The notes beneath the pieces were generated by a model. That model had not been told where the DNA came from, did no database searches, and saw only the letters and a program-made list of their open reading frames with translations. This document shows, piece by piece, positions 1,848-39,564 of a stretch of DNA of 64,000 nucleotides (positions are counted from its first letter, which is position 1; each line of letters opens with the position of its first letter). Both the position numbers and the translations under genes were made by a program. Origin of the DNA: Seleniivibrio woodruffii (lineage in GTDB: Bacteria; Chrysiogenota; Deferribacteres; Deferribacterales; Geovibrionaceae); contig NZ_JAJUIS010000009.1 of assembly GCF_029267515.1 (NCBI RefSeq), positions 41,747 to 105,746 on the forward strand, read 5' to 3'.

Positions 1848-2285
1848 TTAAAGAAGTGACTGCACGCCGTATCTTGAAGCTACGGAGATGAAGTCGCCGG
1901 ACATTTGCTGGTTGGCTTCCTTCACCTTCTCGTATACTTCCTGCAATTCTTTGTTATTGTATGACTGCATAGCGCCGGAAAGCTCTTCCATGGCGCTTTT
2001 GTCATATGTGCCGAGGAATTTTTCACGCGCTGTTCCTTTGATATAGCTAAGAAGCGAATCACTCTCGTTTGATCCTGACGACTGAACGTAGTCCTCAAGA
2101 ACGGAAAGCGCCTTCGCGGATATGTCAACTGTGTCGGCAAAGCCTGTGGGCTTGGACTCTTCGCTTTCGCCGAAGAAAGTTTTCAGCGCCGTAAGGCTGT
2201 CTACGTCTGATGTTTTTGATGAAGAGGATGTCTCTGCTTTATTTGTGAGATCCTGTGTCGGGTAATATTTTCCTGAAATTATCAT
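1848..2285 (-). CDS. Hypothetical acidic, Ser-rich protein with no recognisable domain
   Basis: 145-codon ORF at the tail of the minus-strand TPR-exbB-exbD-tonB-midA run. No TM segment or signal peptide. Convergent with bioD. Confidence 0.45.
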   Translation of the reverse strand: MIISGKYYPTQDLTNKAETSSSSKTSDVDSLTALKTFFGESEESKPTGFADTVDISAKALSVLEDYVQSSGSNESDSLLSYIKGTAREKFLGTYDKSAMEELSGAMQSYNNKELQEVYEKVKEANQQMSGDFISVASRYGVQSLL

Positions 2286-2340
2286 CTTAGCCCCCTGTAA
2301 ACTTTGTTCTGAGGACTAATAAGCATGTTGCGTGCCAGTT

Positions 2341-23513: not shown

Positions 23514-24084
23514 AAATACCGCTGTCGTTTTTCCGCCTGAGAATCTAAGCCGGAAACCAGCGGATACTGTATACGGTATACGATAATTTTGAACCAAGGA
23601 AAGGAAACGGCATATAAAAGAGCAAAAAATGCAGAAAGCCCGACACAATTTCATAAAACATTGTTTAATTTCAGACAACACAACGTTTTTTAAATATTTT
23701 TTCAAACAAACAGTTTTGAACACATGCAAATCATACTAATACGCATATAGTATTACGTCAAAACATACGATAGATACCCAAGAGTCTATATTATTATTAA
23801 TATTCAGATTTAAACGATTACATATTTAAAAGATATGAATTTAATAAAAAACATCCAAAATCTGAATCTACACTTTTGCGATTTTTGAAAACCGTTTGAA
23901 TCGGTGTTTTAAAAAAAATCAACTAAGAATCGTCTATTGCATTTAATTATTTTGTATGTATTTAGATACTAACGGTCACAAACACATTAATACAGACCGA
24001 ACTATTCATTATTTGCATACGTTTGAAGATTCCTATTATTGCTTACGTTTCAGATTTTCTAATTTTAACTTTTTGAGGTTTAAA

Positions 24085-25188
24085 ATGTCTGATAACACTC
24101 TGTTCAGCACAGGGCTCCACAGACGTGATTTCCTGCGTCTTACCGCAGGTCTGACCGCTCTGATGGGTCTTCCTTACGCTATGCACACAAAGGTTGCTGA
24201 GGCGGCCACAGCGGACAACAGACCGCCTGTAATCTGGCTTCATTTTCAGGAATGTACAGGCTGTTCCGAATCGCTTATCCGCTCCGGTCACCCGGATCCT
24301 GCGGCACTCATCCTCGACCTTATCTCGCTTGACTATCACGAAACACTGATGATAGGTTCCGGTCATCAGGCTGAAAAATCACTTGAAGACAGCATGAAGG
24401 CAAACTGGGGCAAATACATCCTCGTTGTTGAGGGCGCGGTTCCCCTTGCCGAAGACGGCATCTACTGCAAAGTGGCAGGCAAAAAAGCTGTGGACTCTCT
24501 TAAAGATGCAGCAGAAGGCGCTGCCGCTGTTATCTGCATCGGCACCTGCTCATCTTTCGGCGGTGTTCAGGCTGCAGACCCGAACCCCACACAGGCTGTA
24601 TCGGCTGCAAGCCTTGTTAAGGACAAACCCGTTATCAACGTTCCCGGATGTCCTCCCAGCCCCTATAACCTGCTTGCGACAATCCTTTACTATCTGACAT
24701 TCAAAAAACTGCCCAAACTCGACAAACTCGGCAGACCCGAATTTGCATACGGCAGAAGAATACACGAACACTGCGAACGCAGACCCCACTTTGATGCGGG
24801 CAGATTTGCCGAACAGTTCGGCGATCAGGGTCATTCAGAAGGCTGGTGTCTGTTCAAACTCGGCTGCAAAGGTCCCGTAACTTTTGCAAACTGCTCTGTT
24901 CAGCGTTTCAACGACGTTGGCGTATGGCCTGTTTCCATGGGTCACCCCTGCATAGGCTGTACAGAACCCGACGTTATGTTCCACACGTCAATCTATGACA
25001 AAGCACAGATTCACGAAATCACTCCGCCCGATTTCTACCCCAACGCCAACCCCGCACCCCGCGGAAAAGGTGCTGATCCGGTCACAACCGGCGTTATCGG
25101 TATGGTGGCAGGCGCCGCAATCGCTGCAAGTGCGATAATGGCGAACAAGCTGCCTAAAGGAGGGGATGATGAAGAAGACAAGGCGTGA
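24085..25188 (+). CDS. hybO: [NiFe] uptake hydrogenase small subunit (group 1, Hyb-type)
   Basis: Start set at ATG 24085 (GAGG RBS). Tat signal HRRDFLRL, VIWLHFQECTGCSES proximal-cluster motif and a C-terminal TM anchor. Confidence 0.92.
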   Translation: MSDNTLFSTGLHRRDFLRLTAGLTALMGLPYAMHTKVAEAATADNRPPVIWLHFQECTGCSESLIRSGHPDPAALILDLISLDYHETLMIGSGHQAEKSLEDSMKANWGKYILVVEGAVPLAEDGIYCKVAGKKAVDSLKDAAEGAAAVICIGTCSSFGGVQAADPNPTQAVSAASLVKDKPVINVPGCPPSPYNLLATILYYLTFKKLPKLDKLGRPEFAYGRRIHEHCERRPHFDAGRFAEQFGDQGHSEGWCLFKLGCKGPVTFANCSVQRFNDVGVWPVSMGHPCIGCTEPDVMFHTSIYDKAQIHEITPPDFYPNANPAPRGKGADPVTTGVIGMVAGAAIAASAIMANKLPKGGDDEEDKA

Positions 25189-26140
25189 TTTCCTGAAGAC
25201 TGCCGCCGCCGGCGGAGCGCTTATGCTCGCTCCCCTTTCAGCAAGCGCGCAGCAAGAAATCAAAGCCGATGACGAAGCCGTAGGCATGTTCTATGACTCG
25301 ACACTTTGCGTCGGCTGTAAGGCGTGCGTTTCAAAGTGCAAGCAGGTCAACGACATGGCGGCAGCACCTATGCCCGGCGACAACGACAGGGTATGGGACG
25401 CTCCCAATGACCTTGACTACCGCACAAGGAACATCATCAAACTTTACAAGGATGAACAGGATCCCACAAAGCACGCATATGTAAAATATCAGTGTATGCA
25501 CTGCATCAAACCTTCATGCGTTTCCGCATGTCCCGTTTCCGCAATGCAGAAAGAAGCAGGCACAGGTATTGTTTTTTATGACAAAAACATCTGCATCGGC
25601 TGCCGTTACTGTCAGGTTGCCTGTCCGTTCAACATTCCCAAATTTGAATGGCCGGAAACCTTCCCCAAAATAGTGAAATGCGACCTTTGCAAATTCACCA
25701 ACCTTAAACTGAAGAACATTCCCGCCTGCTGCGAGGTATGCCCCACGAACGCCGTTATCTTCGGCAAGCGCAAAGACCTTCTGGCAGAGGCGAAACGCCG
25801 TCAGGCAGAGAACCCCGGAAAATATGAGAAACATATTTACGGTGAGTTCGAAGTGGGCGGAACAAACGTTATCTACCTTGCGGGCACTTCATTTGACAAT
25901 CTCGGATTCCCCGAACTGGAAAAAGAATCCGCTGCTCTTATGTCCGAGCACGTTCAGCACACGGTATACAAAGGCTTCATAGCTCCCGTGGCGCTTTACG
26001 GTTTCCTTGCTTTCGTGGCGCTGCGCAACAGAAAATCCGCTGAGGAGGTTGCACACGAACACGAGCTTGAGCACGAACTTGAAGTGGAAATCGAGCACGA
26101 GCTGGAAAAAGAGAAACACGAGAAGGAGGGCAAACACTAA
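25166..26140 (+). CDS. hybA: Hydrogenase 4Fe-4S ferredoxin-type electron-transfer subunit (HybA-like)
   Basis: Tat signal KTRRDFLK, four Cys clusters (CVGCKAC, CMHCIKPSC, CIGCRYC, CDLC...CCEVC), a C-terminal TM helix and a His/Glu-rich tail. Overlaps hybO by 23 nt. Confidence 0.88.
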   Translation: MMKKTRRDFLKTAAAGGALMLAPLSASAQQEIKADDEAVGMFYDSTLCVGCKACVSKCKQVNDMAAAPMPGDNDRVWDAPNDLDYRTRNIIKLYKDEQDPTKHAYVKYQCMHCIKPSCVSACPVSAMQKEAGTGIVFYDKNICIGCRYCQVACPFNIPKFEWPETFPKIVKCDLCKFTNLKLKNIPACCEVCPTNAVIFGKRKDLLAEAKRRQAENPGKYEKHIYGEFEVGGTNVIYLAGTSFDNLGFPELEKESAALMSEHVQHTVYKGFIAPVALYGFLAFVALRNRKSAEEVAHEHELEHELEVEIEHELEKEKHEKEGKH

Positions 26141-27354
26141 TGGCCGGACATCACGACGAATATCAGGTACATAGGGCGAAGATCCTTACTCCTGCCTTCT
26201 ATGTGCTTCTTTTCTTTACGGTTCTCGGTTTCCTGCTCATCGCGTACAGATTTGTGATGGGTATCGGCGCCGTTTCAAACCTTTCAGACGGTTACCCATG
26301 GGGTATCTGGATCGCTTATGACGTTGCAACCTCAACAGCTTTTGCGTGCGGCGGCTACGCCATGGCGCTGGTAATTTACATCATGAACAGGATGAAGTAC
26401 CACCCCCTGATCCGTTCGGCATTGGTTACAAGTATGTTCGGTTACATGCTTGCAGGTATGTCCGTTATGGTTGACGTTGGTCGTTACTGGAACGCATACA
26501 GCTTCTTCATCCCTTCGCGCTGGCAGCCGAACTCGGTAATGTTCGAAGTTGCGGTCTGTATCATGGCATACAACGTGGTTCTTATCATCGAAGTTCTGCC
26601 CGCGATACTTGAGCGCTTCATACATATGAAGGACAACAGATTCCCCAAGCTGAAACACTACGCTATGATAATCTATCCGAAACTTGATAAGGTGCTGATA
26701 TTCATAGTTATACTTGGTATCACCCTGCCCTCTATGCACCAGTCTTCACTCGGTTCGATGCTCATCATCGCCAAGTCCAAGCTGAACCCCATATGGCATA
26801 CGGAGATACTTCCCCTGCTGTTCATCATCAACGCCCTTTACATAGGCTATGCAACAGTTATTTTTGAATCATTCGCCTCTTCAATGGCTTTCAGAAGACC
26901 CTTTGAAAAAGAGGTTCAGCAGCTTTCAAGAATAATCCCTTATGTAACAGGCATATGGCTGACAGTACGTTTCATTGACCTGTATGTGAGAGGTCAGCTC
27001 AGCGCTGCCTTCGCCGGAGACTTCTACTCATGGATGTTCATGGCTGAGATGCTGCTGATTCTCACAGGTACATACATCCTGATGTGGAATCAGTACAGAA
27101 GATCCCCCAGAATGGTTTTCATCGCTGCGATGTTCCTTCTGATAGGCGGAGGCTGGTTCCGTTTCAACGTATACCTTATCGGATTTAAACCTCACGGCAA
27201 CTGGAGCTATTTCCCCTCGCTGCCGGAGTTCTTTATCACCATCGGTCTCGTGGCTTTCGAGATACTCGGCTATATGGTGCTTGTAAAACTGTTCCCCATC
27301 ATGCCTAAGGTTCACGGACACGAGGCAACTGCGGAAACAGCAAAGGCTCATTAA
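26140..27354 (+). CDS. hybB: Hydrogenase integral membrane subunit (HybB/NrfD family)
   Basis: 404 aa with about 10 TM helices. TAATG overlap with hybA. Confidence 0.85.
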   Translation: MAGHHDEYQVHRAKILTPAFYVLLFFTVLGFLLIAYRFVMGIGAVSNLSDGYPWGIWIAYDVATSTAFACGGYAMALVIYIMNRMKYHPLIRSALVTSMFGYMLAGMSVMVDVGRYWNAYSFFIPSRWQPNSVMFEVAVCIMAYNVVLIIEVLPAILERFIHMKDNRFPKLKHYAMIIYPKLDKVLIFIVILGITLPSMHQSSLGSMLIIAKSKLNPIWHTEILPLLFIINALYIGYATVIFESFASSMAFRRPFEKEVQQLSRIIPYVTGIWLTVRFIDLYVRGQLSAAFAGDFYSWMFMAEMLLILTGTYILMWNQYRRSPRMVFIAAMFLLIGGGWFRFNVYLIGFKPHGNWSYFPSLPEFFITIGLVAFEILGYMVLVKLFPIMPKVHGHEATAETAKAH

Positions 27355-27374
27355 TTTTTTAGGAGAAAACGAAG

Positions 27375-29057
27375 ATGTCCAATAGAATCACAATCGACCC
27401 TATTACCCGTATTGAAGGACACCTCCGCATTGACTTCGAAGTGGAGGGAGGCAAGGTTTCAAAAGCATGGTCCTCCGCGCAGATGTGGAGAGGTATCGAA
27501 AAAATTCTTCAGGGAAGAGACCCCAGAGACGCATGGGTTTTTGCGCAGAGATTCTGCGGCGTTTGTACCACAGTACACGCTATCAGCTCTATCCGCTCAC
27601 TTGAAAACGCACTGAACGTTGAAGTGCCCCTTAACGCTCAGCTCGTGCGCAACATTATCATCGCACAGCACTCCGTACAGGATCACATCGTTCACTTCTA
27701 TCACCTGTCTGCTCTGGACTGGGTTGACATAGTTTCAGCTCTTTCCGCAGACCCCAAAAAGACAGCACAGCTTGCCCAGTCCATCTCAAACTGGCCCGGC
27801 AACAGCGAAACAGAGTTCAGAGCCGTTAAAGAAAAACTGACTGCCTTCGTTCAGACAGGCAGACTCGGCATCTTCGGTTCAGGATACTGGGGACACCCCG
27901 CAATGAAACTTCCGCCCGAAGCTAACCTTATGGCTGCCGCACACTATCTGAAAGCACTCGACTATCAGAAAAAAGCTGCCGCTGCCGTTGCTATCCTCGG
28001 CGGAAAGAACCCCCACATTCAGAACCTCTGCCTCGGCGGTGTCGCAACAGCAATCAACATGGACAACGAAGCAGCAATCAACATGGAGCGCATCGCACTG
28101 CTCAGACAACTCATGACCGAAACAAGAGACTTCGTTAAAGAAGTTCTTTTCAACGACGTTGTGACAATCGGCTCTCTGTACAAAGACTGGTTCTCATACG
28201 GACGCGGCGTGGATAACTACCTCGCTGTGCCTGAGTTCCCCCTTGACAGCAAAATGACTAAATTCGATATGTCAGGCGGTATCATCCACGGCGGAGACCT
28301 TAAAAACTTCCGTAAACTGACAACTCACACTGACGAAGCTCTCATCAAAGGCATCACTGAGTCCACAGCTCACGCATGGTACAAAGACGACAAGCCTAAA
28401 CACCCCTTCGAAGGTGTTACAGAGCCTGAATACACAGACTTCAACCCCGACGGCAAATACACATGGTGCAAGGCGCCCAGACTCGACGGCAGACCTGTTC
28501 AGGTTGGACCCGTTGCTCAGATACTCGCTTCCTATGCGGCAGGCGACAAAGAGGTCAAAGCCCTTGTTGACGCAGTATGCAGCAAACTCGGAATCAGCGT
28601 TAACGCCCTTCAGTCTACAATGGGACGTCACGTCACACGCGCCATCCGTTCCGTTATCATGGCTGAAAAATCACTCAAATACCTCGACATGCTCGTTGAA
28701 AACTACGGCAAAGGCGACACAGTTTACGCTAACCACACAGAACTGCCCAAAGGCGAATATCAGGGTGTGGGCTTCCACGAAGCACCCCGCGGAACCCTGT
28801 CTCACTGGATGGTTATCGAAGACAAAAAACTTAAAAACTATCAGGCAGTTGTTCCTTCAACATGGAACGCAGGACCCAGAGATGAAAACGGCGCAGCAGG
28901 ACCCTATGAAGCAAGTATTCAGGGCAACCCCGTTGCTGACGCACACAAACCTCTGGAAGTAATCAGAACTGTTCACTCTTTCGACCCCTGTATAGCATGT
29001 GCAGTGCACTCTATCGACCCTGAGGGCAAAGAGATTACAAACGTGAGGGTTAGATAA
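27375..29057 (+). CDS. hybC: [NiFe] hydrogenase large subunit
   Basis: ITRIEGH, RFCGVCTTVH and C-terminal DPCIACAVH, followed by a 15-aa extension that the maturation protease removes. All Ni-ligand positions are Cys, with no in-frame TGA. Confidence 0.93.
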   Translation: MSNRITIDPITRIEGHLRIDFEVEGGKVSKAWSSAQMWRGIEKILQGRDPRDAWVFAQRFCGVCTTVHAISSIRSLENALNVEVPLNAQLVRNIIIAQHSVQDHIVHFYHLSALDWVDIVSALSADPKKTAQLAQSISNWPGNSETEFRAVKEKLTAFVQTGRLGIFGSGYWGHPAMKLPPEANLMAAAHYLKALDYQKKAAAAVAILGGKNPHIQNLCLGGVATAINMDNEAAINMERIALLRQLMTETRDFVKEVLFNDVVTIGSLYKDWFSYGRGVDNYLAVPEFPLDSKMTKFDMSGGIIHGGDLKNFRKLTTHTDEALIKGITESTAHAWYKDDKPKHPFEGVTEPEYTDFNPDGKYTWCKAPRLDGRPVQVGPVAQILASYAAGDKEVKALVDAVCSKLGISVNALQSTMGRHVTRAIRSVIMAEKSLKYLDMLVENYGKGDTVYANHTELPKGEYQGVGFHEAPRGTLSHWMVIEDKKLKNYQAVVPSTWNAGPRDENGAAGPYEASIQGNPVADAHKPLEVIRTVHSFDPCIACAVHSIDPEGKEITNVRVR

Positions 29058-29058
29058 T

Positions 29059-29547
29059 ATGCAGGTGGTGGTCTTCGGAGCAGGAAATCTGCTTCTCAGC
29101 GACGAGGGGCTTGGTGTTCATCTTGTTAAAAGGATGAATGAAAAATATGAAACCTCAGACGATGTCGAGTTCTATGACGGCGGGACTATGGGTATTCTTG
29201 CCACCCATAAACTTGAGGAGACCGCCCATGTGATTATCGTGGACAGCCTCGACGCGCAGGGAATACCCGGCGAACTCAGGGTTTACAAAAAAGAGGATAT
29301 CATGCTGGAGAAAATTCCCGCAAAGATGTCCCCCCACCAGATAGGGCTTCAGGAGGTACTTACACTCAGCGAGCTGAGAGGAAAAGCACCGGAAACGATA
29401 ACATTCTACGGCGTTATCCCTGCAAGTCTGGACAGCTCTGTGGAGCTTAGCCCTGAGGTTGAAGAGAGGCTCGACGAGATTGAGACTCTTATAGTTGACG
29501 AACTTAAAAGGATGGACATTAATCTGTCGCCCGTTATAGCGGCATAA
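29059..29547 (+). CDS. hybD: Hydrogenase maturation endopeptidase
   Basis: 162 aa with VVFGAGNLLLSDEGLGVH...DGGT...IIVD, typical of HybD/HyaD. Confidence 0.9.
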   Translation: MQVVVFGAGNLLLSDEGLGVHLVKRMNEKYETSDDVEFYDGGTMGILATHKLEETAHVIIVDSLDAQGIPGELRVYKKEDIMLEKIPAKMSPHQIGLQEVLTLSELRGKAPETITFYGVIPASLDSSVELSPEVEERLDEIETLIVDELKRMDINLSPVIAA

Positions 29548-29640: not shown

Positions 29641-29739
29641 GCAGTCTGATACTTATTCTTTGTATTTCCACTGCTTTTCCTGTATATTCCCAACATCATA
29701 TCAAGGAGCGAACATGCCGCCCATAGCACCCTCAGTGTC
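29641..29739 (+). repeat. 99-bp direct repeat, copy 1 (promoter, RBS and first 9 codons of the downstream methyltransferase gene)
   Basis: Base-for-base identical to 29905-30003. Contains TTGTAT-17-TATATT, AAGGAG and ATG 29714. This copy reads MPPIAPSVS-IS-stop (29714-29749). Confidence 0.95.
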
Positions 29740-29904: not shown

Positions 29905-30003
29905 GCAGTCTGATACTTATTCTTTGTATTTCCACTGCTTTTCCTGTATATTCCCAACATCATATCAAGGAGCGAACATGCCGCCCATAGCACCCTCAGT
30001 GTC
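29905..30003 (+). repeat. 99-bp direct repeat, copy 2 (functional gene start)
   Basis: Identical to 29641-29739. The promoter-like TTGTAT (29924-29929) and TATATT (29947-29952) precede ATG 29978. Confidence 0.95.
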
Positions 30004-31177
30004 GGTTCAGGTGACACCTGCCGCAGAGAAGAGCATAAAAAAAGGACATCCGTGGGTGTACGCCGACGCAGTGCTGAAAACCAGCCGCGAAGCAGGCGCA
30101 GGGGACATCGCCGCCATATTCAGTGCAAAACGCGAATTTATAGGACTGGGGCTGTACGACCCCACATCTCCAATACGCATACGCATCCTCTCAACCAAAC
30201 CGAAAACCACCATAGATGAGGCATGGCTGAAAACCGCCATGCAGAATTCCATATCAAAAAGACAACATCTTATAGATGATAAGCTCACTGACGGTTTCCG
30301 CCTTATACATGGCGAAAACGACGGTTTGCCCGGTCTGGTTGCGGATATTTATCGTAACGTTCTCGTCATAAAACTCGATACGACCGCATGGATGCCCCAT
30401 CTGGAGCTTATCTGCATGGTATTCAGAGAACTTATAAGCCCACTTACCATAATTCTGAGGCTATCGCGCACAGTGGCTCCGCAGTACGGATATTCCGATG
30501 GCTGTCTGCTGTACGGCGAACCGGTCGGCGGCGCGGTTATATTTTCGGAAAACGGCATACTCTTCGAGGCAGACCCTGTGAAAGGGCAGAAGACCGGATT
30601 CTTCCTTGACCAGAGAGATAACAGAGCGAGAGCCGGAAAACTGGCAAAGGGCAGAGACGTTCTGAATATATTTGCATACAACGGCGGTTTTTCTCTCTAT
30701 GCGGCTAAGGGCGGCGCAAAGTCCGTCATAAGCCTCGACATCGCTCCGCAGGCTCTGGAAGCGGCTAAACGCAATTTCGCACTGAACCCCGACCTCACCT
30801 GTCTCCACGAGACCCTCTGCGCGGACGCGTTCGAGGCTATGAAACAGCTTGCGGACAAAGGCAGAAAATTCGGAATGGTGATTGTCGATCCACCCTCTTT
30901 CGCGCGAAAACAGGCGGACGTACCAAATGCGCTTGCGGCATACGAAAAGCTGACAAAGCTGGCGGTAAACCTCACGTCAAAGGATGGCATCCTTATTTGT
31001 GCATCATGCTCGGCGCGGGTTGGTGCAGATGATTTCTTCGAAACGGTTCTCAAAACCGTGAAGCGTTCGGGACGCTGCTTTAAAGAAACGGAAAGAACGA
31101 GAAACGCCCCCGATCATCCGGTCGGATTCAACGAGGGCGCTTATCTGAAATGTATCTATTTAAAAATTACTTCCTGA
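29978..31177 (+). CDS. RlmI-like class I SAM-dependent rRNA methyltransferase (PUA-like N-domain plus MTase)
   Basis: Start set at ATG 29978 (AAGGAG RBS). KKGHPWVYADAV N-terminal signature, DGLPGLVADIY, FFLDQRDNR and the VLNIFAYNGGFS SAM motif. Confidence 0.8.
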   Translation: MPPIAPSVSVQVTPAAEKSIKKGHPWVYADAVLKTSREAGAGDIAAIFSAKREFIGLGLYDPTSPIRIRILSTKPKTTIDEAWLKTAMQNSISKRQHLIDDKLTDGFRLIHGENDGLPGLVADIYRNVLVIKLDTTAWMPHLELICMVFRELISPLTIILRLSRTVAPQYGYSDGCLLYGEPVGGAVIFSENGILFEADPVKGQKTGFFLDQRDNRARAGKLAKGRDVLNIFAYNGGFSLYAAKGGAKSVISLDIAPQALEAAKRNFALNPDLTCLHETLCADAFEAMKQLADKGRKFGMVIVDPPSFARKQADVPNALAAYEKLTKLAVNLTSKDGILICASCSARVGADDFFETVLKTVKRSGRCFKETERTRNAPDHPVGFNEGAYLKCIYLKITS

Positions 31178-32697: not shown

Positions 32698-34674
32698 CTA
32701 GGCAGTGAATTTCGGCAGAACCACTGTGAACATCGCACCTTCAATTGTGTTTGAAGCGGAAATTCTGCCTTTCATATGGTTCTCTATTATGGCTCTGGTC
32801 ATATACAGACCGATTCCGGTACCCTCTTCGTTCTGTTTCGTGGTGAAATAAGGTTCAAACATCCGCGCCATAACTGCCTCGTCGATGCCGCCGCCATTGT
32901 CAGATATGGAGAAAGATATTTCATGTTCATCGGTTTCGAGGATTATATCTATTATTCCTTCATTAATTTTTCCGGCACGTATCTCTTTTATTATAGCGTC
33001 CTTTGCGTTCTGAATGATGTTCAGCACAGCCTGTTTCATCTCACCAGGAAATCCGCTTACAATCGCCGTATCAGCCAGTTTCCCTGGGTTTTCGCATACG
33101 CCTTCCGCATATACAAAAATATCGCTGCCACTCCTGCATGTATAGTTAAGCGATATGCCGTTGTATTTCATCTGGGCGTTTATCAGCCTTATAACCTCCA
33201 CCATACTGGTTATGATTGAAAACTGTTTTTCCGTTTTGTCCGCACGGAAAAAGTTGCGGAAATCGTCTATAGTGGTGGACATATGCTGGAGCATAGTCAT
33301 TATCTTCTCTTCAAACTCGTTCGCCTCTTCCATATCCAGATTGCCTTCGCGCTGACCTATAACATAGCTCTGAACAGCAAGCCCTATTATGTTCAGGGGC
33401 TGCCGCCACTGGTGGGCTATAGCGTTCACCATACGTCCCATATCGACAAATTTCTGCTGTTCGAAAAGGAGCTGTTCGTTCTTCTGTCTCAGTCCGGTTT
33501 CAAGTTCAACCATGTTTTTCAGCTTAACGTTCATGTCCTCAAGCTCGGTTTCACGCTGCTTTATACGCTTTATAAGCTCGTTGTACGCAGAAACAAGATC
33601 CCCGATTTCGTCACTCCTTTTTATGGGAAGAAACTGATCATAATCAAGTGATTCCGCCTTTCGCACAGCGACCTGAAGCTCTTTCAGAGGCTTTGTAACG
33701 GCAAGATTCAACAGGAAAAAACTGACGGGCACCACAAGCACCAGTACAAAAAAGGAAATCATTATAAATCCCATAAGGATGCTCTGGCGTATGTCCCGCA
33801 CTGCGTAGTCGTGGGCGGAGAATCCGAAATCCACCGAGGTATCCCCGTCTATCACCCATTTCTGGAAATACACGTTCATACCGTCTGAACGCTGTATGCG
33901 CTCGGCTGTGGTGAAACTTTCGGGAAACAGTGTCGTATGATCCGTGTCAGGTCTGAATGAACTGTCAAAAACTGTCCATCCGTTGATATAATATGTGAAG
34001 CCCATTCCCGTTGCCGCCTCAACCTGACGTACAAAGGATGAATCGAGAAAATCAGCTGACATAACGGTCATACGGCTTCCGCCGCGGACAGCCTCTGCTG
34101 CGTACTGAACAGTCAATACGCCGGATATGTCGGTAAAGCTGTACCCTCTGCGGACGTGTCTGGAATTTGCCAGAAAATCTTTTATAAAATCAACTCCGCC
34201 GAAACCGCTCATTATTTCGCCGTTTTTAATTATTACCGGTTTACCCGCATAATCCATGTAACCACCGTAATAGTCACCGTTTTCTCTGAATGCAAAGACC
34301 CGCAGCTTCATTTCGCTGTCATAAACAGCCAGAGCCCCTACGTTTCCAAGATTCGCCATCTCCGACAGCTTGGATGCCTCGCGGAAAAGCCCAGTTTCGG
34401 TGGAAAAATCCATTATTCCCAAATAATCCGAGCCGGATATCACGTCTGTATATTTAAGAAGATCAACCTGCAAACTTTTGATTTTTTCATTCAGAACTGA
34501 AAAAGAAGTGCGGAAGGAAGACGCTGTACGCCAGTTGATATTTGACACAGTCATAGAATACAGTGTAACTGCAAAAACCGCGCACATTAACAGTATTGTG
34601 AGCATCACAAAAATAAACAGTTTTGTTCTGACACTCTTAATTTCCGGAATAATCATCCAGCTTTCTCCGGGCAT
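32698..34674 (-). CDS. Membrane sensor histidine kinase with a large periplasmic domain
   Basis: TM, ~270-aa periplasmic region, TM, HAMP, coiled coil, H-box AIAHQWRQPLN and an ATPase domain (DNGGGI..., GTGIGLYM). Confidence 0.85.
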   Translation of the reverse strand: MPGESWMIIPEIKSVRTKLFIFVMLTILLMCAVFAVTLYSMTVSNINWRTASSFRTSFSVLNEKIKSLQVDLLKYTDVISGSDYLGIMDFSTETGLFREASKLSEMANLGNVGALAVYDSEMKLRVFAFRENGDYYGGYMDYAGKPVIIKNGEIMSGFGGVDFIKDFLANSRHVRRGYSFTDISGVLTVQYAAEAVRGGSRMTVMSADFLDSSFVRQVEAATGMGFTYYINGWTVFDSSFRPDTDHTTLFPESFTTAERIQRSDGMNVYFQKWVIDGDTSVDFGFSAHDYAVRDIRQSILMGFIMISFFVLVLVVPVSFFLLNLAVTKPLKELQVAVRKAESLDYDQFLPIKRSDEIGDLVSAYNELIKRIKQRETELEDMNVKLKNMVELETGLRQKNEQLLFEQQKFVDMGRMVNAIAHQWRQPLNIIGLAVQSYVIGQREGNLDMEEANEFEEKIMTMLQHMSTTIDDFRNFFRADKTEKQFSIITSMVEVIRLINAQMKYNGISLNYTCRSGSDIFVYAEGVCENPGKLADTAIVSGFPGEMKQAVLNIIQNAKDAIIKEIRAGKINEGIIDIILETDEHEISFSISDNGGGIDEAVMARMFEPYFTTKQNEEGTGIGLYMTRAIIENHMKGRISASNTIEGAMFTVVLPKFTA

Positions 34675-34904
34675 ACCGTCACTTGGTTTAACGGAACGGA
34701 ATATATTAAAAAGCTAACCTTTGACTATGCTTCTATGATTCAATTTTATATTATTTTAGAAATATTCACAATAGATTTAGAAATAATCCCCTTAGTAAAG
34801 CTCATATGTCAGTATTTAATTAATCATAGATTCATAAATTCAACTCTCCATTATATAAAATATTGTGCAATCACAACAATATATATAGTTATTACAATAC
34901 TCTG

Positions 34905-34961
34905 TGGCGAAAAACAGCCACAGCACAAACGCAACACAGCCCAATTGGCTGATTTTCGCCA
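34905..34961. promoter_or_regulatory. Pair of 16-bp dyads; candidate enhancer (UAS) for the sigma-54 promoter
   Basis: TGGCGAAAAACAGCCA (34905-34920) and, on the opposite strand, TGGCGAAAATCAGCCA (34946-34961). Their centres are 41 bp apart and ~150 and ~109 bp upstream of the -24 GG. Confidence 0.5.
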
Positions 34962-35060
34962 TACAAGAACCAGTATAAAAATGCGCATCCGGCTCTCGAA
35001 TATTTTTTTAAGGCTTTGACAGCAGATATTTACAAAACACGCACATGGATTTTACAATTT

Positions 35061-35076
35061 TGGCACAGGCATTGCT
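35061..35076 (+). promoter_or_regulatory. Sigma-54 (-24/-12) promoter
   Basis: TGGCAC-AGGCA-TTGCT, with GG at 35062-35063 and GC at 35074-35075 at the correct spacing. Confidence 0.75.
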
Positions 35077-35086
35077 CTAATAATTA

Positions 35087-35281
35087 CTGAAACGTACGCA
35101 ATAGGTATCAGATTTAAACATGGGTTCGGCGTAATGCCGAGGGGGAGTGTCTTGTATTCGGCGGGCGAAATGCCCGCTGACAGGACAAAAAGAAACAAAT
35201 AGCCACAAATAAATAGATGCATAGGCGGTATCAACCGCTTTTCGCCCTGCTGAGGTCTCCAATACCGGCAGGGCTTTTTTA
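35087..35281 (+). ncRNA. Candidate sigma-54-dependent small RNA (~195 nt), unrecognised family
   Basis: No credible ORF. Stems at 35125-35141, 35158-35180 and 35223-35240, an A/C-rich unpaired stretch at 35181-35222, and a terminator at the 3' end. The 5' end is inferred from promoter geometry. Confidence 0.6.
35244..35281 (+). terminator. Intrinsic terminator of the candidate sRNA
   Basis: GCCCTGC / GCAGGGC stem, extendable to 9 bp, followed by TTTTTT. Confidence 0.8.
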
Positions 35282-35322
35282 TATCCCCTCTTTTTGTTTA
35301 TATACGTCTTATTACATCGTCA

Positions 35323-35381
35323 GAATTTTGATTTCTAGGGTCATGTACACTCACGTACACTCCCCGTCTAAATCAAAATTC
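35323..35381. repeat. 12-bp perfect inverted repeat enclosing two 10-bp tandem repeats
   Basis: GAATTTTGATTT (35323-35334) and AAATCAAAATTC (35370-35381). Inside are GTACACTCAC and GTACACTCCC (35345-35364). Confidence 0.8.
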
Positions 35382-35568
35382 TTCCTTGTACTACTCGCAT
35401 CTAAACAAAAATCTGCTTGAATCCTCGTTCTGCTGCGTCACTTCGTTCATCGCGAAGATAAATAAAAAATCCGGCTTCGCGAGGAGCGAAAGAGACGCGG
35501 CGATCTCATCTTAGTTTGCTTTTATACTCTATCTCTAAATGCGTTAAATGGTCTATACGAAAAACAAA

Positions 35569-36933
35569 TCAGACCAAACCGTATTTTTCCAGCTTATACC
35601 GCAGAGTGCCCCTTGGAATATTCAGCAGTTTCGACGTCCGCAGGACGTTAGCACCCGTAATGACAAGTGCTTCGGAAAGAAGCTGTTTCTCGACACTTTC
35701 AATGGCTGATTCAAAATCCATACCATCAGGCGGTATATGCAAATTGCTCTGGGTTCCGATTTTCGGTTTTTCGCCTGATATCTCACGCGGAAGCATGTCC
35801 GGCGTGATTATCTCACGGCTGTACATGATACAGATCCGCTCGACGATATTCTTCATTTCACGGATATTTCCCGGCCATGGATAAGCCTTGAACAGTTCCA
35901 GCGCCTCTTTCGAAACCTCGCGAATATCCTTTTTAAACTCGGTTCTGTAACGTTTTATAAAATGGTCAAGCAGCGGTGCGATATCCTCCGTCCGCTCTCT
36001 GAGCGGCGGCAGAGACAGCGGAAAAACATTAAGCCTGTAAAACAGATCTTCCCTGAACTCTTTGTTGTTTATTGCCTCACGCAGATCCTTGTTTGTGGCT
36101 GCAATTATACGCACGTCTATATCTATGTTTCTGGTGCTGCCCAGTCTGCGTATCTTTCTCTCTTCCAGCACACGCAGGAACTTAACCTGCAAATTCATAT
36201 CCATTTCGCCTATCTCGTCAAGAAACACAGTGCCGCCCGCTGCCTCTTCCAGAAGTCCGGTTTTTCTTGTCTTGGCATCGGTGAACGCTCCCTTTTCGTG
36301 CCCGAAAAGCTCTGATTCCAGAAGGTTATATGGAAGCGAACCGCAGTTTATGTCTACAAACGGCTTGTCCTTTCTTGGAGAAAGATTGTGTATCGCTCTG
36401 GACACAACCTCCTTTCCCGTGCCGCTCTCACCGGTAATAAGCACTGTGGCTGTCTCGTGCTTTGCCACCTCGCGTATCTTCATGAAAACATCCGTCATGG
36501 CAGGGCTTACACCGACAACCTCCGGCAGAACAGAACCGTCCCGTTTAAATGATTTCAACTCCCGTTTAAGGCTTCTTGTTTCCAGCGCAAGCCGAACGAT
36601 AAGGTGCAGCGCGTCCGCTTTGAAAGGTTTTTTGATATAGTCGTAGGCGCCCATTTTAAGCGCCTCCACGGCGCTTTCAACGGTTCCGTAGCCTGTTATG
36701 ATTATTACCAGAATTTCTGGATCTATCTCTTTCATCTCACGCAGTATGTCTATACCGCTGTCCCTGCCAAGGTTCAGATCGAGCAGAACAAGGTCGATAT
36801 CGCCCTCGGTCAGCATATGTATCGATTCGTGCCTGTTCTGGGCAACGGCAACGTCGTAACCTTTAAGCGTGAGAGTTCTTTCGAGATTTTCGCGAATAAA
36901 AATTTCATCATCGACAACGAGTATTTTTTCCAT
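35569..36933 (-). CDS. NtrC-family sigma-54-dependent response regulator
   Basis: Start set at MEKILVVDDE (ATG 36933). Receiver domain, AAA+ domain with GESGTGKE and ESELFGHEKGAFTDA, and a C-terminal HTH (LNIPRGTLRYKLEKYGL). Confidence 0.92.
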   Translation of the reverse strand: MEKILVVDDEIFIRENLERTLTLKGYDVAVAQNRHESIHMLTEGDIDLVLLDLNLGRDSGIDILREMKEIDPEILVIIITGYGTVESAVEALKMGAYDYIKKPFKADALHLIVRLALETRSLKRELKSFKRDGSVLPEVVGVSPAMTDVFMKIREVAKHETATVLITGESGTGKEVVSRAIHNLSPRKDKPFVDINCGSLPYNLLESELFGHEKGAFTDAKTRKTGLLEEAAGGTVFLDEIGEMDMNLQVKFLRVLEERKIRRLGSTRNIDIDVRIIAATNKDLREAINNKEFREDLFYRLNVFPLSLPPLRERTEDIAPLLDHFIKRYRTEFKKDIREVSKEALELFKAYPWPGNIREMKNIVERICIMYSREIITPDMLPREISGEKPKIGTQSNLHIPPDGMDFESAIESVEKQLLSEALVITGANVLRTSKLLNIPRGTLRYKLEKYGLV

Positions 36934-37001: not shown

Positions 37002-37017
37002 TGGCGGTTTTTCGCCA
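37002..37017 (-). promoter_or_regulatory. Third copy of the 16-bp dyad, possibly also an attenuator hairpin
   Basis: Reads TGGCGAAAAACCGCCA on the minus strand, immediately after the kinase stop codon (37018-37020). As RNA it forms AUGGCG-AAAAAC-CGCCAU followed by GUUUUUCUU. Confidence 0.45.
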
Positions 37018-37932
37018 TCAACCCAGATTGAAAGTTATAAGAAACTCGGTACCCTTTCCCACCTCGCTTGAAACCGTTATCTCGCCGCCGTGTCTGCGCA
37101 CAATATCGCGCACCACTGAAAGCCCTATGCCTGTTCCGCCCTGTTTGTCTGTGAAAAACGGTTCGAAAATCATATGAACTTTTTCTTCCGGTATGCCGGA
37201 GCCTGTATCTTCGAAATGAATATATATCTTATTATCAGCAGTTTTAGCGGTCACTGTCAGATTTCCGCCACTTTCCATTGCCTGAACGGCGTTTATCACA
37301 AGATTATGAAACGCCTGCCGCAGTTTGCTGCCGTCCGCAAGGATATGCGGTATGCCCGGTTCTATCTCTGTGCGAACCACGACCCTGTTTATTACACAGA
37401 GCTTATGGTTGAGCATCAGCACTTCCGAAAGAACGACAGCAATGTCCTCTTCGCCCATGGCGCGGACATCACTTCCTGAATATGTGAGAACATCCGTAAG
37501 CATCTGCTCAAGACGTTCAATCTCAGATATCGCCATCCTAAGAAGATGCCTTTCATTCTCGGCACAGCTCAGCCTGTCGTGGATATCGTCCAGCAGAACA
37601 CCGATTCCCGTGAGAGGGTTGCGCATCTCGTGCGCCAGAGAGGGCATTATTTCACCCAGAGACATAAGTTTAGAGGCACGTTCGCGCTCAGCGGCGTTCT
37701 CAAGAATAACGAGTCTGTGCCCGCTTTCACCGACGTTTTCGGATGTCACGGAATAGTCGGATGCCAAACCGCCTTTAAAGAGGCGCAGTGTTTCCCCGTC
37801 CGCAACATTTTTAAGTTTTGCGCCGGCATCCGTCTCTTTCAGAAGCAGACTGCCGACCCCGTCAGCATAGACAGTGTCCCCGTTTCCGTCGATAATAATA
37901 ATGGCTCTGTAAAACTTCAGAAATCTGTTCAT
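37018..37932 (-). CDS. Soluble histidine kinase with a short PAS-like N-terminus
   Basis: No TM segment. ~85-aa N-terminal region (IIIIDGNGDTVYADG), H-box LAHEMRNPLTGI and an ATPase domain (DTGSGIP..., GGTGIGLSV). Confidence 0.88.
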   Translation of the reverse strand: MNRFLKFYRAIIIIDGNGDTVYADGVGSLLLKETDAGAKLKNVADGETLRLFKGGLASDYSVTSENVGESGHRLVILENAAERERASKLMSLGEIMPSLAHEMRNPLTGIGVLLDDIHDRLSCAENERHLLRMAISEIERLEQMLTDVLTYSGSDVRAMGEEDIAVVLSEVLMLNHKLCVINRVVVRTEIEPGIPHILADGSKLRQAFHNLVINAVQAMESGGNLTVTAKTADNKIYIHFEDTGSGIPEEKVHMIFEPFFTDKQGGTGIGLSVVRDIVRRHGGEITVSSEVGKGTEFLITFNLG

Positions 37933-39564
37933 CTACACCCTGAATCTTTCCACCATAGTGTTAAGATGTGCCGCCTGCTGTGCAAGCTGATCTATCGTAC
38001 TGTTAACTTCTGTCATAGTGTTTACGTTCTGTTCCAGCCCTTCTGACATCTGCACAGCGTTTTCGTTTACGTTCTGGATACCCTCGCTCTGTTCGCCGAT
38101 AGCAAGCCGCACGGCACCGATGCTGAGATTCACGTCGGTAATTGCATCCACAATTTTTCTGAACGAAGCATCCGTTTGCTCGATAAGTTTATTGCCCTGT
38201 TCAATATTCTTCTCTGCGTCGCCCATTTCAGTGGACGCGGACTTTGTATCCGCGACAAAAGTTCTGATTATAGAACCAATCTCAGATGTTGCGGACTGGG
38301 TTCTTTCCGCCAGTTTGCGCACTTCGTCGGCAACAACGGCAAAGCCCCTGCCCGCCTCTCCAGCTCTTGCCGCCTCGATTGCGGCGTTGAGCGCCAGAAG
38401 GTTGGTCTGGTCGGCAATATCGCTTATCACGTTGAGAATTTCACCTATCTGTCCCGAAGAGGTAGTAAGGTTTTCGATGGTTTCGGAAAGTTTTCCGGTG
38501 GAATGTGTAATGCCCGCCATTCCTTTTTTCACCATTTCAAGTTTTTCCGCACCGTCTTTCGTACTGTCCACAGCCTCGTTCAGTGGAACGGAAGCCTGCT
38601 GTATATTGTCCACCATGACGTCACTGGTGGCACCTATCTCGCTTATGGCGGAAGCTATGGATTCAACCTGACGGGAGCGCTCCATAAAGGTCTCAGTCAT
38701 ATTTCTCATAGTGGAGTTAAGCTCCTCCGCACTTACGCTGACCCCAGCGGCATTCTCCTTAACGTCGGATACTATTTCCTGAATACTGCTGACGAAGCTG
38801 TCGAAATAGCCTGACATCTCGCCTATCTCGTCTTTGGTTTTTATGTTTATGCGGCGGGTGAGGTCTCCCTTGCCGCCTGTGAAATCTTTAAGAACATGTA
38901 TAAAGCTGTAAAGCCTTTTGATAACCGCTGTGTGCACGAAAAAGTATATCAGACCTGACAGAACGGCTATTGAGATTGACGTGAAATAAACCCAGAATGC
39001 TGCGGAACTTACCGCAGTTCTGTTAATATCGGAAGCCAGTTCATATTCGTTTGTGATGGAGGATATCAGAAGCTCTATTTCGTTGCTGTTTTCGCTGGCA
39101 ATACCGTCTATCCTGTCATCAAGCGCAGCAAACGTTTCGTTGTCCGCTCCGTTTTTTACGGCGTTGAAAAGTTCACCTTCAACAACCTCTTTCTGTTTCG
39201 CGAACATAGCCAGAATCTTTTCAATATTCGCCTTTTCCTCGTCAGTATCTGCATATTCACGGAAGGTCGGCGTCATCTCTTCTATATCTTTGTAATATCC
39301 GTTCAGTTCTTCCAGAAGTTCAGGGGCAACCTGCATGGAATCTTTATCGACTATTACGTCCATCGCAGCCAGTGCTATGCCGCTGTTATAAGTTTTCAGT
39401 TGATTAACATCCAGTATCTGTCTCGCCCTTTCATCCTGCGTTTCCGAAGCGGATTCTGCGCCGGACAGTTTTATGCCGAGATACACGGCTGTGAACACAG
39501 AAACTACGAATAATACAGAAAAAAATAAATTAAGTTTTGCCCTGATAGTCATGTGGCACCTCAA
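37933..39564 (-). CDS. Methyl-accepting chemotaxis protein (helical periplasmic domain, HAMP, signalling domain)
   Basis: Two TM segments flank a ~170-aa helical domain. Contains the highly conserved hairpin tip ...[40 protein letters not shown]. Its TAG stop is immediately followed by the kinase ATG. Confidence 0.9.

Follow-up and report, generated by a model that had tools for sequence, protein, structure and literature searches.

A predicted sigma-54-dependent small RNA gene beside an NtrC-family regulator gene in Seleniivibrio woodruffii and related Deferribacterales

What is produced from a sigma-54 promoter that is followed by no plausible protein gene? This question is raised by a gap of 894 bp (34675-35568) in a 64,000-bp stretch of DNA from Seleniivibrio woodruffii, a cultivable bacterium; the whole stretch is referred to here as the window. 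The gap is flanked by the gene of a 658-aa HAMP histidine kinase (32698-34674, minus strand) and by the gene of an NtrC-family response regulator (35569-36933, minus strand). The original prediction had proposed a -24/-12 promoter, a structured non-coding RNA and a terminator within this gap, and the gap beside the activator gene was found as described. Judged by the comparison of homologous loci, the feature is real and strongly conserved. We consider it probable that the locus is a stand-alone regulatory small RNA (sRNA) gene and that the output of the two-component system encoded next to it is the transcription of this gene.

The promoter and the conserved RNA

The promoter TGGCACAGGCATTGCT (TGGCAC-aggca-TTGCT, 35061-35076, plus strand) is the only exact match to TGGCAC-N5-TTGCW on both strands of the 64 kb, as the original prediction had it from inspection by eye. 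By chance, 0.08 exact matches are expected, and 8 of 100 dinucleotide shuffles contain at least one; with one mismatch tolerated, the scan for -24/-12 elements gives four matches in the window versus 2.6 expected. On its own the match is suggestive, not decisive, and it is the conservation of the promoter which makes it convincing. The elements TGGCA and TTGCT are unchanged in 11 aligned homologues and are also kept in three homologues added later. A sigma-70-like sequence immediately upstream (TTTACA-18-TACAAT, 35029-35058) was taken as a chance occurrence in A+T-rich DNA; its hexamers are not kept in the closest relatives (L001-L003).

The loci of relatives were found by protein searches with the regulator, including a protein-guided scan of one genome per species, and the contigs were then fetched. 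The scan placed the window within the Deferribacteraceae, near Seleniivibrio. The closest regulators are 98% (L003, metagenome-assembled genome (MAG) UBA6793), 94% (L001, Seleniivibrio sp.) and 92% (L002, a Deferribacterales MAG) identical to the regulator of the window, and the next-best homologues occur in Denitrovibrio (68%, L004) and in Desulfuromonadales and Geobacterales (55-68%). A further protein search yielded regulators with 70-77% identity. In ten such loci the regulator stop codon is followed, 170-200 bp further on, by a perfect or near-perfect -24/-12 promoter and then by an RNA of about 180-196 nt, which has its 3′ half in common with the window RNA. The 14 RNA loci form four groups, namely A (window, L001-L003), B (L087, L088), C (L081, L082, L096) and D (L083, L084, L086, L094, L095).

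Across the window and L001-L003 the entire gap can be aligned. Within group A the RNA is 94-96% identical between pairs of genomes and the promoter 89%, but identity falls to 43% over the 67 nt 5′ of the promoter and to 70% over the 20 nt that follow the U-run; conservation begins at the -24 element and ends after the U-run. Within the RNA only hairpin loops, a junction and the A-rich linker differ, and the indels are of 1, 3 and 4 nt. Each of the 14 loci yields one match to a covariance model built on the 3′ domain (R1), at 103-130 bits (128 bits for the window RNA). Across 92 sources (about 1.05 Mb), which comprise these loci and 78 others, the model revealed neither a second copy nor a homologue beside the regulators of Denitrovibrio or Desulfuromonadales. 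The two weak matches, in L085 (28 bits) and L004 (20 bits), were traced to a terminator and to site hairpins. The five matches of a scan of metagenome contigs for AGATGCATANGCGG-N4-8-CCGCTYYT all lie in high-G+C coding DNA without a promoter and are therefore spurious; the collection scanned was evidently without the JGI samples that carry L084-L086.

The predicted non-coding RNA is about 194 nt long (35087-35280, plus strand), its start being set about 12 nt past the GC of the -12 element. The 199-nt stretch has a folding energy of -67.9 kcal/mol, which lies at z = -4.05 relative to dinucleotide shuffles. The original prediction had described four stems, and all four are present at their places in the window. 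Three of them, the hairpins H2 and H3 and the terminator, are conserved and show compensatory changes; the 5′ hairpin H1 is common only to the nearest sister clade, and as a conserved element it does not stand. H1 (UUCGGC/GCCGAG with a variable loop, 35125-35141) changes within group A only in the loop, including a 1-nt indel. In group B the hairpin has one compensatory pair, and in groups C and D it is unalignable, since the 5′ domains of these groups are different hairpins. Downstream of H1 a purine-rich stretch, GGGGGAGUGUCU (35142-35153), is conserved in groups A, B and C.

The common 3′ domain starts with H2 (CGGCGGGCG/UGCCCGCUG, 35159-35179), a G+C-rich stem of 9 bp in which 92% of the alignment cells are paired and three of the nine pairs have changed on both sides. 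The following A-rich linker (35180-35215) is predicted to be unpaired and contains 66% A over the 32 nt before GAUGCAUA. Its composition is conserved but its sequence is variable, with 38-72% A in the 14 homologues and at least 44% in 13 of them. The element GAUGCAUA (35216-35223) is invariant in all 14 homologues and has a mean predicted unpaired probability of 0.46-0.87; we regard it as a candidate seed or recognition element. It runs into H3 (AGGCGGU/ACCGCUU, 35223-35240), which is 96% paired and has its closing pair changed from U-A to C-G in group C. The intrinsic terminator (35244-35280) comprises a 9-bp stem (35244-35274) with a 13-nt loop containing UCUCC, and six U residues (35275-35280). 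Here 97% of the cells are paired and five of the nine pairs are compensatory; this covarying stem and the invariant U-run support the terminator that had been proposed. Its arms in the groups are CCCUGCUG/CGGCAGGG, CCCCGAUG/CAUCGGGG, CCCCGGCG/CGCCGGGG and CUCUGGAGA/UCUCCAGAG. An automated terminator scan overlooked the structure because the 13-nt loop is larger than the limit of 8 nt in the scan.

The helix statistics refer to H2, H3 and the terminator in the alignment of the 3′ domain (alignment A5, 13 distinct sequences). In these three helices 94.8% of the cells form standard pairs, a share that drops to 34-55% once the 3′ partners are shifted by 1-3 columns. Changes on both sides with the pairing kept occur at nine pairs (38 cells). 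None of 500 column shuffles matches the observed paired fraction or the covariation score, and RNAalifold concurs. The original prediction had named the conservation of promoter and stems in relatives as a check, and over the 14 loci the promoter and three of the four stems are conserved, with compensatory pairs in these stems.

Two further observations concern sequences outside the conserved RNA. Between the terminator and the regulator gene lies a perfect 13-bp inverted repeat, AGAATTTTGATTT (35322-35334) and AAATCAAAATTCT (35370-35382), with a 35-nt spacer. A second sigma-54-like promoter, TGGCACGCAACATGCT (2322-2337, minus strand), has one mismatch in the -12 element and is situated about 35 nt 5′ of a Shine-Dalgarno sequence and the ATG of an unannotated open reading frame (ORF) of about 145 aa (about 1850-2286, minus strand). 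Just 5′ of this promoter lies CTGAAAC-TGGCACGCAA, which is similar to CUGAAAC-GUACGCAA at the 5′ end of the sRNA.

The adjacent two-component system and its sites

The presumed activator (35569-36933, minus strand) is an NtrC/AtoC-family response regulator with a receiver, a sigma-54 AAA+ domain and a Fis-type helix-turn-helix (Pfam Response_reg, Sigma54_activat, AAA_lid_14, HTH_8). Its true start is the ATG at 36933, and its stop codon lies 288 bp past the U-run of the RNA. Among the NCBIfam models AtoC gives the top score, which is under the cut-off of that model.

Two putative upstream activator sites (UAS) precede the promoter. UAS-1 (TGGCGAAAAACAGCCA, 34905-34920) is a TGGC-N8-GCCA palindrome 156 bp 5′ of the -24 element; UAS-2 (TGGCTGATTTTCGCCA, 34946-34961), 115 bp 5′ of the -24 element, is an inverted copy of UAS-1 with 15 of 16 bases in common. 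Both are exact and at unchanged distance in the four genomes of group A, whereas the intervening 25 bp have diverged. In groups B, C and D the paired sites lie at about -195/-123 and -161/-91. Altogether, two sites with at most one mismatch are located 90-195 bp upstream of the promoter in 13 of the 14 loci, the remaining one (L086) having one degenerate palindrome. The window holds five TGGC-N8-GCCA matches versus 0.9 expected, a number that one of 100 shuffles reaches.

A third site, TGGCGGTTTTTCGCCA (37002-37017), overlaps the stop codon of the kinase gene about 70 nt upstream of the regulator start. It is kept at the kinase-regulator junction in eight loci (window, L001-L003, L087, L088, L094, L096) and adjoins a sigma-70-like TTGCTA-N17-TATACT, which suggests that the regulator gene might be autoregulated through this site. 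Another match, TGGCTGAAAACCGCCA (30224-30239), is part of a methyltransferase coding sequence and is also found in L001-L003 with a varied N8 core; it may reflect coding constraint (AWLKTAM), not binding.

The cognate histidine kinase (37018-37932, minus strand) has 304 aa and consists of the kinase core. At the same position L088 encodes a 798-aa dCache-HAMP kinase, of which residues 527-798 align with the window protein at 41% identity; the periplasmic sensor and the HAMP and PAS parts are thus missing from the window kinase. Its gene begins right after the stop codon of a gene for a 543-aa methyl-accepting chemotaxis protein (37933-39564, minus strand), an arrangement shared with L003. The kinases of L081 and L082 are likewise short (216 aa).

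The same combination of elements is found at loci which lack the RNA. In many loci of Desulfuromonadales and Geobacterales TGGC-N8-GCCA sites, usually in tandem, stand 5′ of exact -24/-12 promoters directly downstream of homologous regulator genes. Such a promoter drives a DASS carrier (Na_sulph_symp/CitMHS) in L004 (Denitrovibrio) and in L085, and dctPQM (TRAP) in Geomonas (L058); the partner kinase in transporter-type loci is a dCache-HAMP sensor of about 800 aa. Because the tandem sites and the sigma-54 promoter are shared with the transporter loci beside homologous regulators, the adjacent regulator is very probably the activator of the RNA promoter, and we strongly infer that synthesis of the RNA depends on it. 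With its dCache kinase, NtrC-family regulator, tandem sites and sigma-54 promoter in front of dctPQM (L058) or DASS genes (L004, L085), the module of the relatives resembles DctB/DctD, and the DctBD systems of Rhizobium and Pseudomonas exemplify this control logic for carboxylate transporters (PMC4482717). The module described here differs from DctB/DctD in its sRNA output, in the best NCBIfam score (AtoC) and in the window kinase without sensor domain. By its position the sRNA gene holds, in this lineage, the place of the transporter gene of the relatives and is the predicted local output of the module.

The regulator gene is the sole constant neighbor of the RNA gene (14 of 14 loci). The RNA gene is co-directional with it in groups B-D (10 of 14 loci) and convergent, that is, inverted, only in group A. 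No inverted repeats that could explain the inversion were found flanking the inverted module. On the other side the RNA gene is bordered by the 658-aa kinase gene in groups A and B and by the 3′ end of a convergent NiFe-hydrogenase operon in groups C and D. This linkage in all loci and the tandem sites support the activator control that had been proposed; an antisense action on the 3′ end of the activator gene, the other part of that proposal, cannot be the conserved role because the RNA is co-directional with the regulator gene in 10 of the 14 loci.

The window also contains a NiFe-hydrogenase operon (23956-29547, plus strand; small subunit, Fe-S protein, NrfD-like protein, 560-aa large subunit, HycI protease). 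It is about 5.5 kb away from the sRNA gene, and in groups C and D (L081-L084, L086, L094, L095) it abuts the sRNA terminator convergently. In groups A and B genes for a kinase, a phosphonate-binding protein and a methyltransferase appear inserted between the operon and the sRNA gene. In this region there is a perfect 99-nt direct repeat (29641-29739 and 29905-30003; spacing 264 bp, with a 165-nt unrelated insert between the copies), which duplicates the upstream region and the first codons of a PUA/SAM-methyltransferase gene (29924-31177, plus strand). A small insertion accompanied by a long duplication might explain it, as might an error of assembly.

Relation to known RNAs

The original prediction had recognized no named RNA family, and the Rfam search agrees: among 4227 models there is no match at the gathering level in the window except for a tRNA. 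Scans by E-value gave only chance-level matches in the gap and in five related loci of groups B-D. The atoC RNA (RF01733), which gave the one Rfam alignment of any length, was considered as a candidate and rejected, as it scores 20.1 bits at 35193-35280 (E = 1) against a gathering score of 50; it has no match (E ≤ 1) in the five loci of groups B-D and stays under the gathering score in 11 further loci with regulator homologues. There is a likeness in the hairpin and in the terminator loop with a C/U-rich (CCUCC-like) stretch, preceded by an A-rich segment containing AGAU, and some representatives are near response-regulator genes in Desulfuromonadales. The eight members of RF01733 are, however, deltaproteobacterial RNAs of about 90 nt with a TATAAT-like start instead of a preceding -24/-12 promoter. 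The motif was reportedly described by Weinberg et al. in 2010.

To our knowledge, only a few proteobacterial systems are known in which a sigma-54-dependent sRNA is encoded beside its activator (GlmY, Qrr, CrcZ, NrsZ, Pxr). GlmY of the Enterobacteria is a sigma-54-dependent sRNA of about 150-200 nt beside the two-component system GlrK/GlrR (QseE/QseF), whose NtrC-family regulator activates from upstream sites; the gene is located upstream of glrK, and the RNA, which has a homologue GlmZ, acts as a decoy for the adaptor protein RapZ. The regulatory architecture is similar here, whereas the window RNA matches no Rfam model, and GlmY has a dual promoter whereas the sigma-70-like site of the window is not conserved in L001-L003. 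The Vibrio RNAs Qrr1-5 depend on sigma-54 and the NtrC-type regulator LuxO, whose gene adjoins qrr1; they require Hfq and have a conserved single-stranded seed. They differ from the window RNA in their length of about 100 nt and their multiple paralogues, the window RNA being present once per locus and without sequence similarity to them.

In the Pxr/Nla19 system the gene of the sRNA Pxr lies in the intergenic region directly 3′ of an NtrC-type regulator gene, and a sigma-54 promoter and enhancer sites of its own are predicted for it (PMC5568312). The likeness extends from gene position, promoter and sites to the multi-stem-loop structure with conserved and lineage-variable stems (PMC5568312). 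Pxr is, however, a myxobacterial RNA of about 108 nt, and the RNA of the window is about 194 nt long, comes from the Deferribacterales and, in the window clade, runs opposite to the regulator gene; between the two there is no similarity in sequence or by covariance model. CrcZ is encoded downstream of cbrB and depends on CbrB and RpoN, and read-through from the activator gene can also yield CrcZ (PMC5113210). CrcZ and CrcY of the CbrA/CbrB system of Pseudomonas, which links carbon-source sensing to post-transcriptional control, share with the RNA described here the location directly downstream of a sigma-54 activator gene; the likeness is partial, as the RNA gene is co-directional with the activator gene in 10 of the 14 loci and inverted in the window clade. 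In the co-directional clades a read-through of the CrcZ type would be possible. CrcZ has about 400 nt and several Hfq/Crc-binding AAnAAnAA motifs, whereas the conserved element here is GAUGCAUA with its hairpin.

The traits of a sigma-54-dependent sRNA beside an enhancer-binding protein, as far as they can be read from the DNA, are all found at the locus: the promoter, upstream sites that can be attributed to the activator, the adjacent NtrC-family gene, and a terminator and structure without an ORF. The RNA has the architecture of this class and none of the sequences or defining motifs of the systems named. The closest functional parallels are, by analogy, Pxr and CrcZ, followed by GlmY/GlrR and Qrr/LuxO. 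By these comparisons the RNA represents a new sRNA family of a kind that is already known (Pxr/Nla19, CrcZ/CbrB, GlmY/GlrR, Qrr/LuxO).

Proposed mode of action and alternative explanations

At the level of the alignments we regard the promoter, the sites, the conserved RNA structure, the non-coding nature and the linkage to the regulator gene as established. We suggest that the RNA is made and acts in the following way. The phosphorylated regulator would bind to the palindromes at 34905 and 34946, contact sigma-54 RNA polymerase at 35061-35076 and thereby bring about an open complex. The RNA of about 194 nt would start near 35087 and stop at the terminator (35244-35280). It would consist of a clade-specific 5′ domain and of the conserved 3′ domain with H2, the unpaired A-rich linker, GAUGCAUA, H3 and the terminator. 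The invariant GAUGCAUA with its A-rich unstructured flank, followed by H3 and a U-tailed terminator, would fit the usual layout of a trans-acting base-pairing sRNA. Most likely the RNA acts in trans, using GAUGCAUA and the bases next to it for pairing. Since an AUG is part of the complement UAUGCAUC, the simplest prediction is pairing at start codons, with occlusion of the start codon as the expected effect. Because the regulator module turns on a di/tricarboxylate transporter in relatives, the signal is probably the availability of organic acids. We infer both the trans base-pairing mode and this signal.

Several points weigh against this proposal. The regulator has the motif GAFTDA and not the canonical GAFTGA. 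This is a family-wide trait, as 64 of the 82 motifs counted in the window and related loci read GAFTDA (GAFTNA 11, GAFTGA 6, GAFTSA 1), and GAFTDA is also present in homologues beside sigma-54 promoters of transporter genes. In the minimum-free-energy fold of group A part of GAUGCAUA is paired with the 5′ domain (unpaired probability about 0.5); the long-range pairing concerned, GAUGC with the 5′ GGUAUC, is not conserved in the other groups. The partner kinase in the window genome is without a sensor domain, and this clouds the input signal. The existence of the transcript, the positions of its ends and its need for RpoN and the regulator are predicted. A search of the window and of about 170 kb from related Deferribacterales found no start codon overlapped by the complement UAUGCAUC, a negative of little weight as the search spanned only about 2% of each genome. 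The best duplex among 208 start regions of the window (-27.2 kcal/mol, at 2332) is spurious and no target; it lies on the non-coding strand opposite a methyltransferase gene, beside the second sigma-54-like promoter. Finally, tblastn of the 64-kb window and of the fetched loci gave no match to Hfq, CsrA or RpoN, a result that says nothing about the genome as a whole.

Which other roles could the RNA have? It could titrate a protein in the manner of CrcZ, its A-rich linker sequestering Hfq or another RNA-binding protein and thus relieving the repression of other mRNAs when the system is active. The linker with its 38-72% A and predicted lack of pairing would suit such a role, as would the U-tail of the terminator and a layout which copies that of cbrB-crcZ, with the RNA directly downstream of the sigma-54 activator gene (PMC5113210). 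However, CrcZ carries several AAnAAnAA motifs, and here they occur in only 3 of the 14 homologues (0-3 per RNA), so that a sponge of this type is unsupported. Runs of at least four ARN triplets are found in the linker of only four homologues, L088 and L096 no longer have the single candidate CsrA-like site (ACAGGAC), and it is GAUGCAUA with the helices that is conserved, not the sequence of the linker. We therefore regard protein titration as unlikely. Still less probable is a role in cis, in which the terminator would control read-through into a downstream gene, or in the window the RNA would act antisense to the 3′ end of the convergent regulator gene. L087 and L088 do have the co-directional gene of a 658-aa histidine kinase about 100 nt past the RNA, and in the window a read-through transcript would be antisense to the regulator gene, reached 288 nt further on. 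But a leader or attenuator fails as a general explanation, because 12 of the 14 loci are without a co-directional downstream gene, the hydrogenase operon being convergent in the eight loci of groups C and D and the regulator gene in group A. The orientation to the regulator gene flips between clades, so that an antisense pairing is not conserved. The terminator is strong, with its invariant U-run and covarying stem, and a conserved alternative anti-terminator pairing was not seen.

That a small protein is made from the RNA, alone or in a dual-function RNA, is in our view highly improbable. The AUG within GAUGCAUA is invariant and follows an A-rich unstructured region, and in groups A and B the reading frame starting there begins with MHRRYQPLF. 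This frame (35217-35420 in the window) has no Shine-Dalgarno sequence; it is reduced to 4 codons in L086 and 14 codons in L082, has a different sequence in group D (MHMRFRRF), and at the other loci crosses H3 and the terminator without a stop codon within the RNA. The only other ORF on the plus strand of the RNA region, MGSA, has 4 codons in the window and 19 in L003, and the indels of 1, 3 and 4 nt disrupt other ORFs. Among the RNA homologues there is no conserved ORF. The substitutions in the stems keep the pairing, not the amino acids, and are not synonymous. The original prediction had likewise seen no plausible coding sequence here, naming both frames, and the RNA is accordingly taken as non-coding from its sequence. 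The least credible of the explanations, and one already disfavoured, is that of a decaying relic, in which sites and promoter once served a transporter gene that has since been lost and the sequence behind them has no function. The nearest outgroups L085 and L004 do have a DASS transporter under the same module and at the same position after the regulator gene. The RNA, however, is the best-conserved intergenic part (94-96% versus 43-70% in the flanks) and is kept in 14 genomes with regulators down to 72-77% identity to that of the window. Its stems have compensatory substitutions, and promoter and sites were kept through the inversion. We thus prefer the stand-alone regulatory sRNA gene under control of the adjacent two-component system.

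If this holds, the locus would be an independent example of a sigma-54-dependent sRNA from a different and poorly studied phylum; a limited full-text literature search turned up no regulatory RNA in Deferribacterota. The comparative signal is unusually clean, with a sharp boundary at the -24 element, covarying helices and an activator site shared with transporter promoters. The covariance model, the predicted regulator motif TGGC-N8-GCCA and the candidate seed GAUGCAUA are supplied by this analysis. A wider reading is possible but doubtful. A carboxylate-sensing module would have been rewired in one Deferribacterales lineage from a transporter to an sRNA as its sole adjacent output, and this sRNA would control carbon or respiratory metabolism globally at the post-transcriptional level and would be the first riboregulator described in Deferribacterota. 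In the window clade the inversion of sites, promoter and RNA and the loss of the periplasmic sensor would then imply a new input signal.

In summary, the predicted sRNA gene bears on evolution in two respects. The module has been inverted in the window clade. More generally, the same sensor, regulator, sites and promoter appear to control a transporter in some lineages and an sRNA in others. Such an evolutionary substitution would offer a concrete case for how transcriptional circuits may gain a post-transcriptional output.

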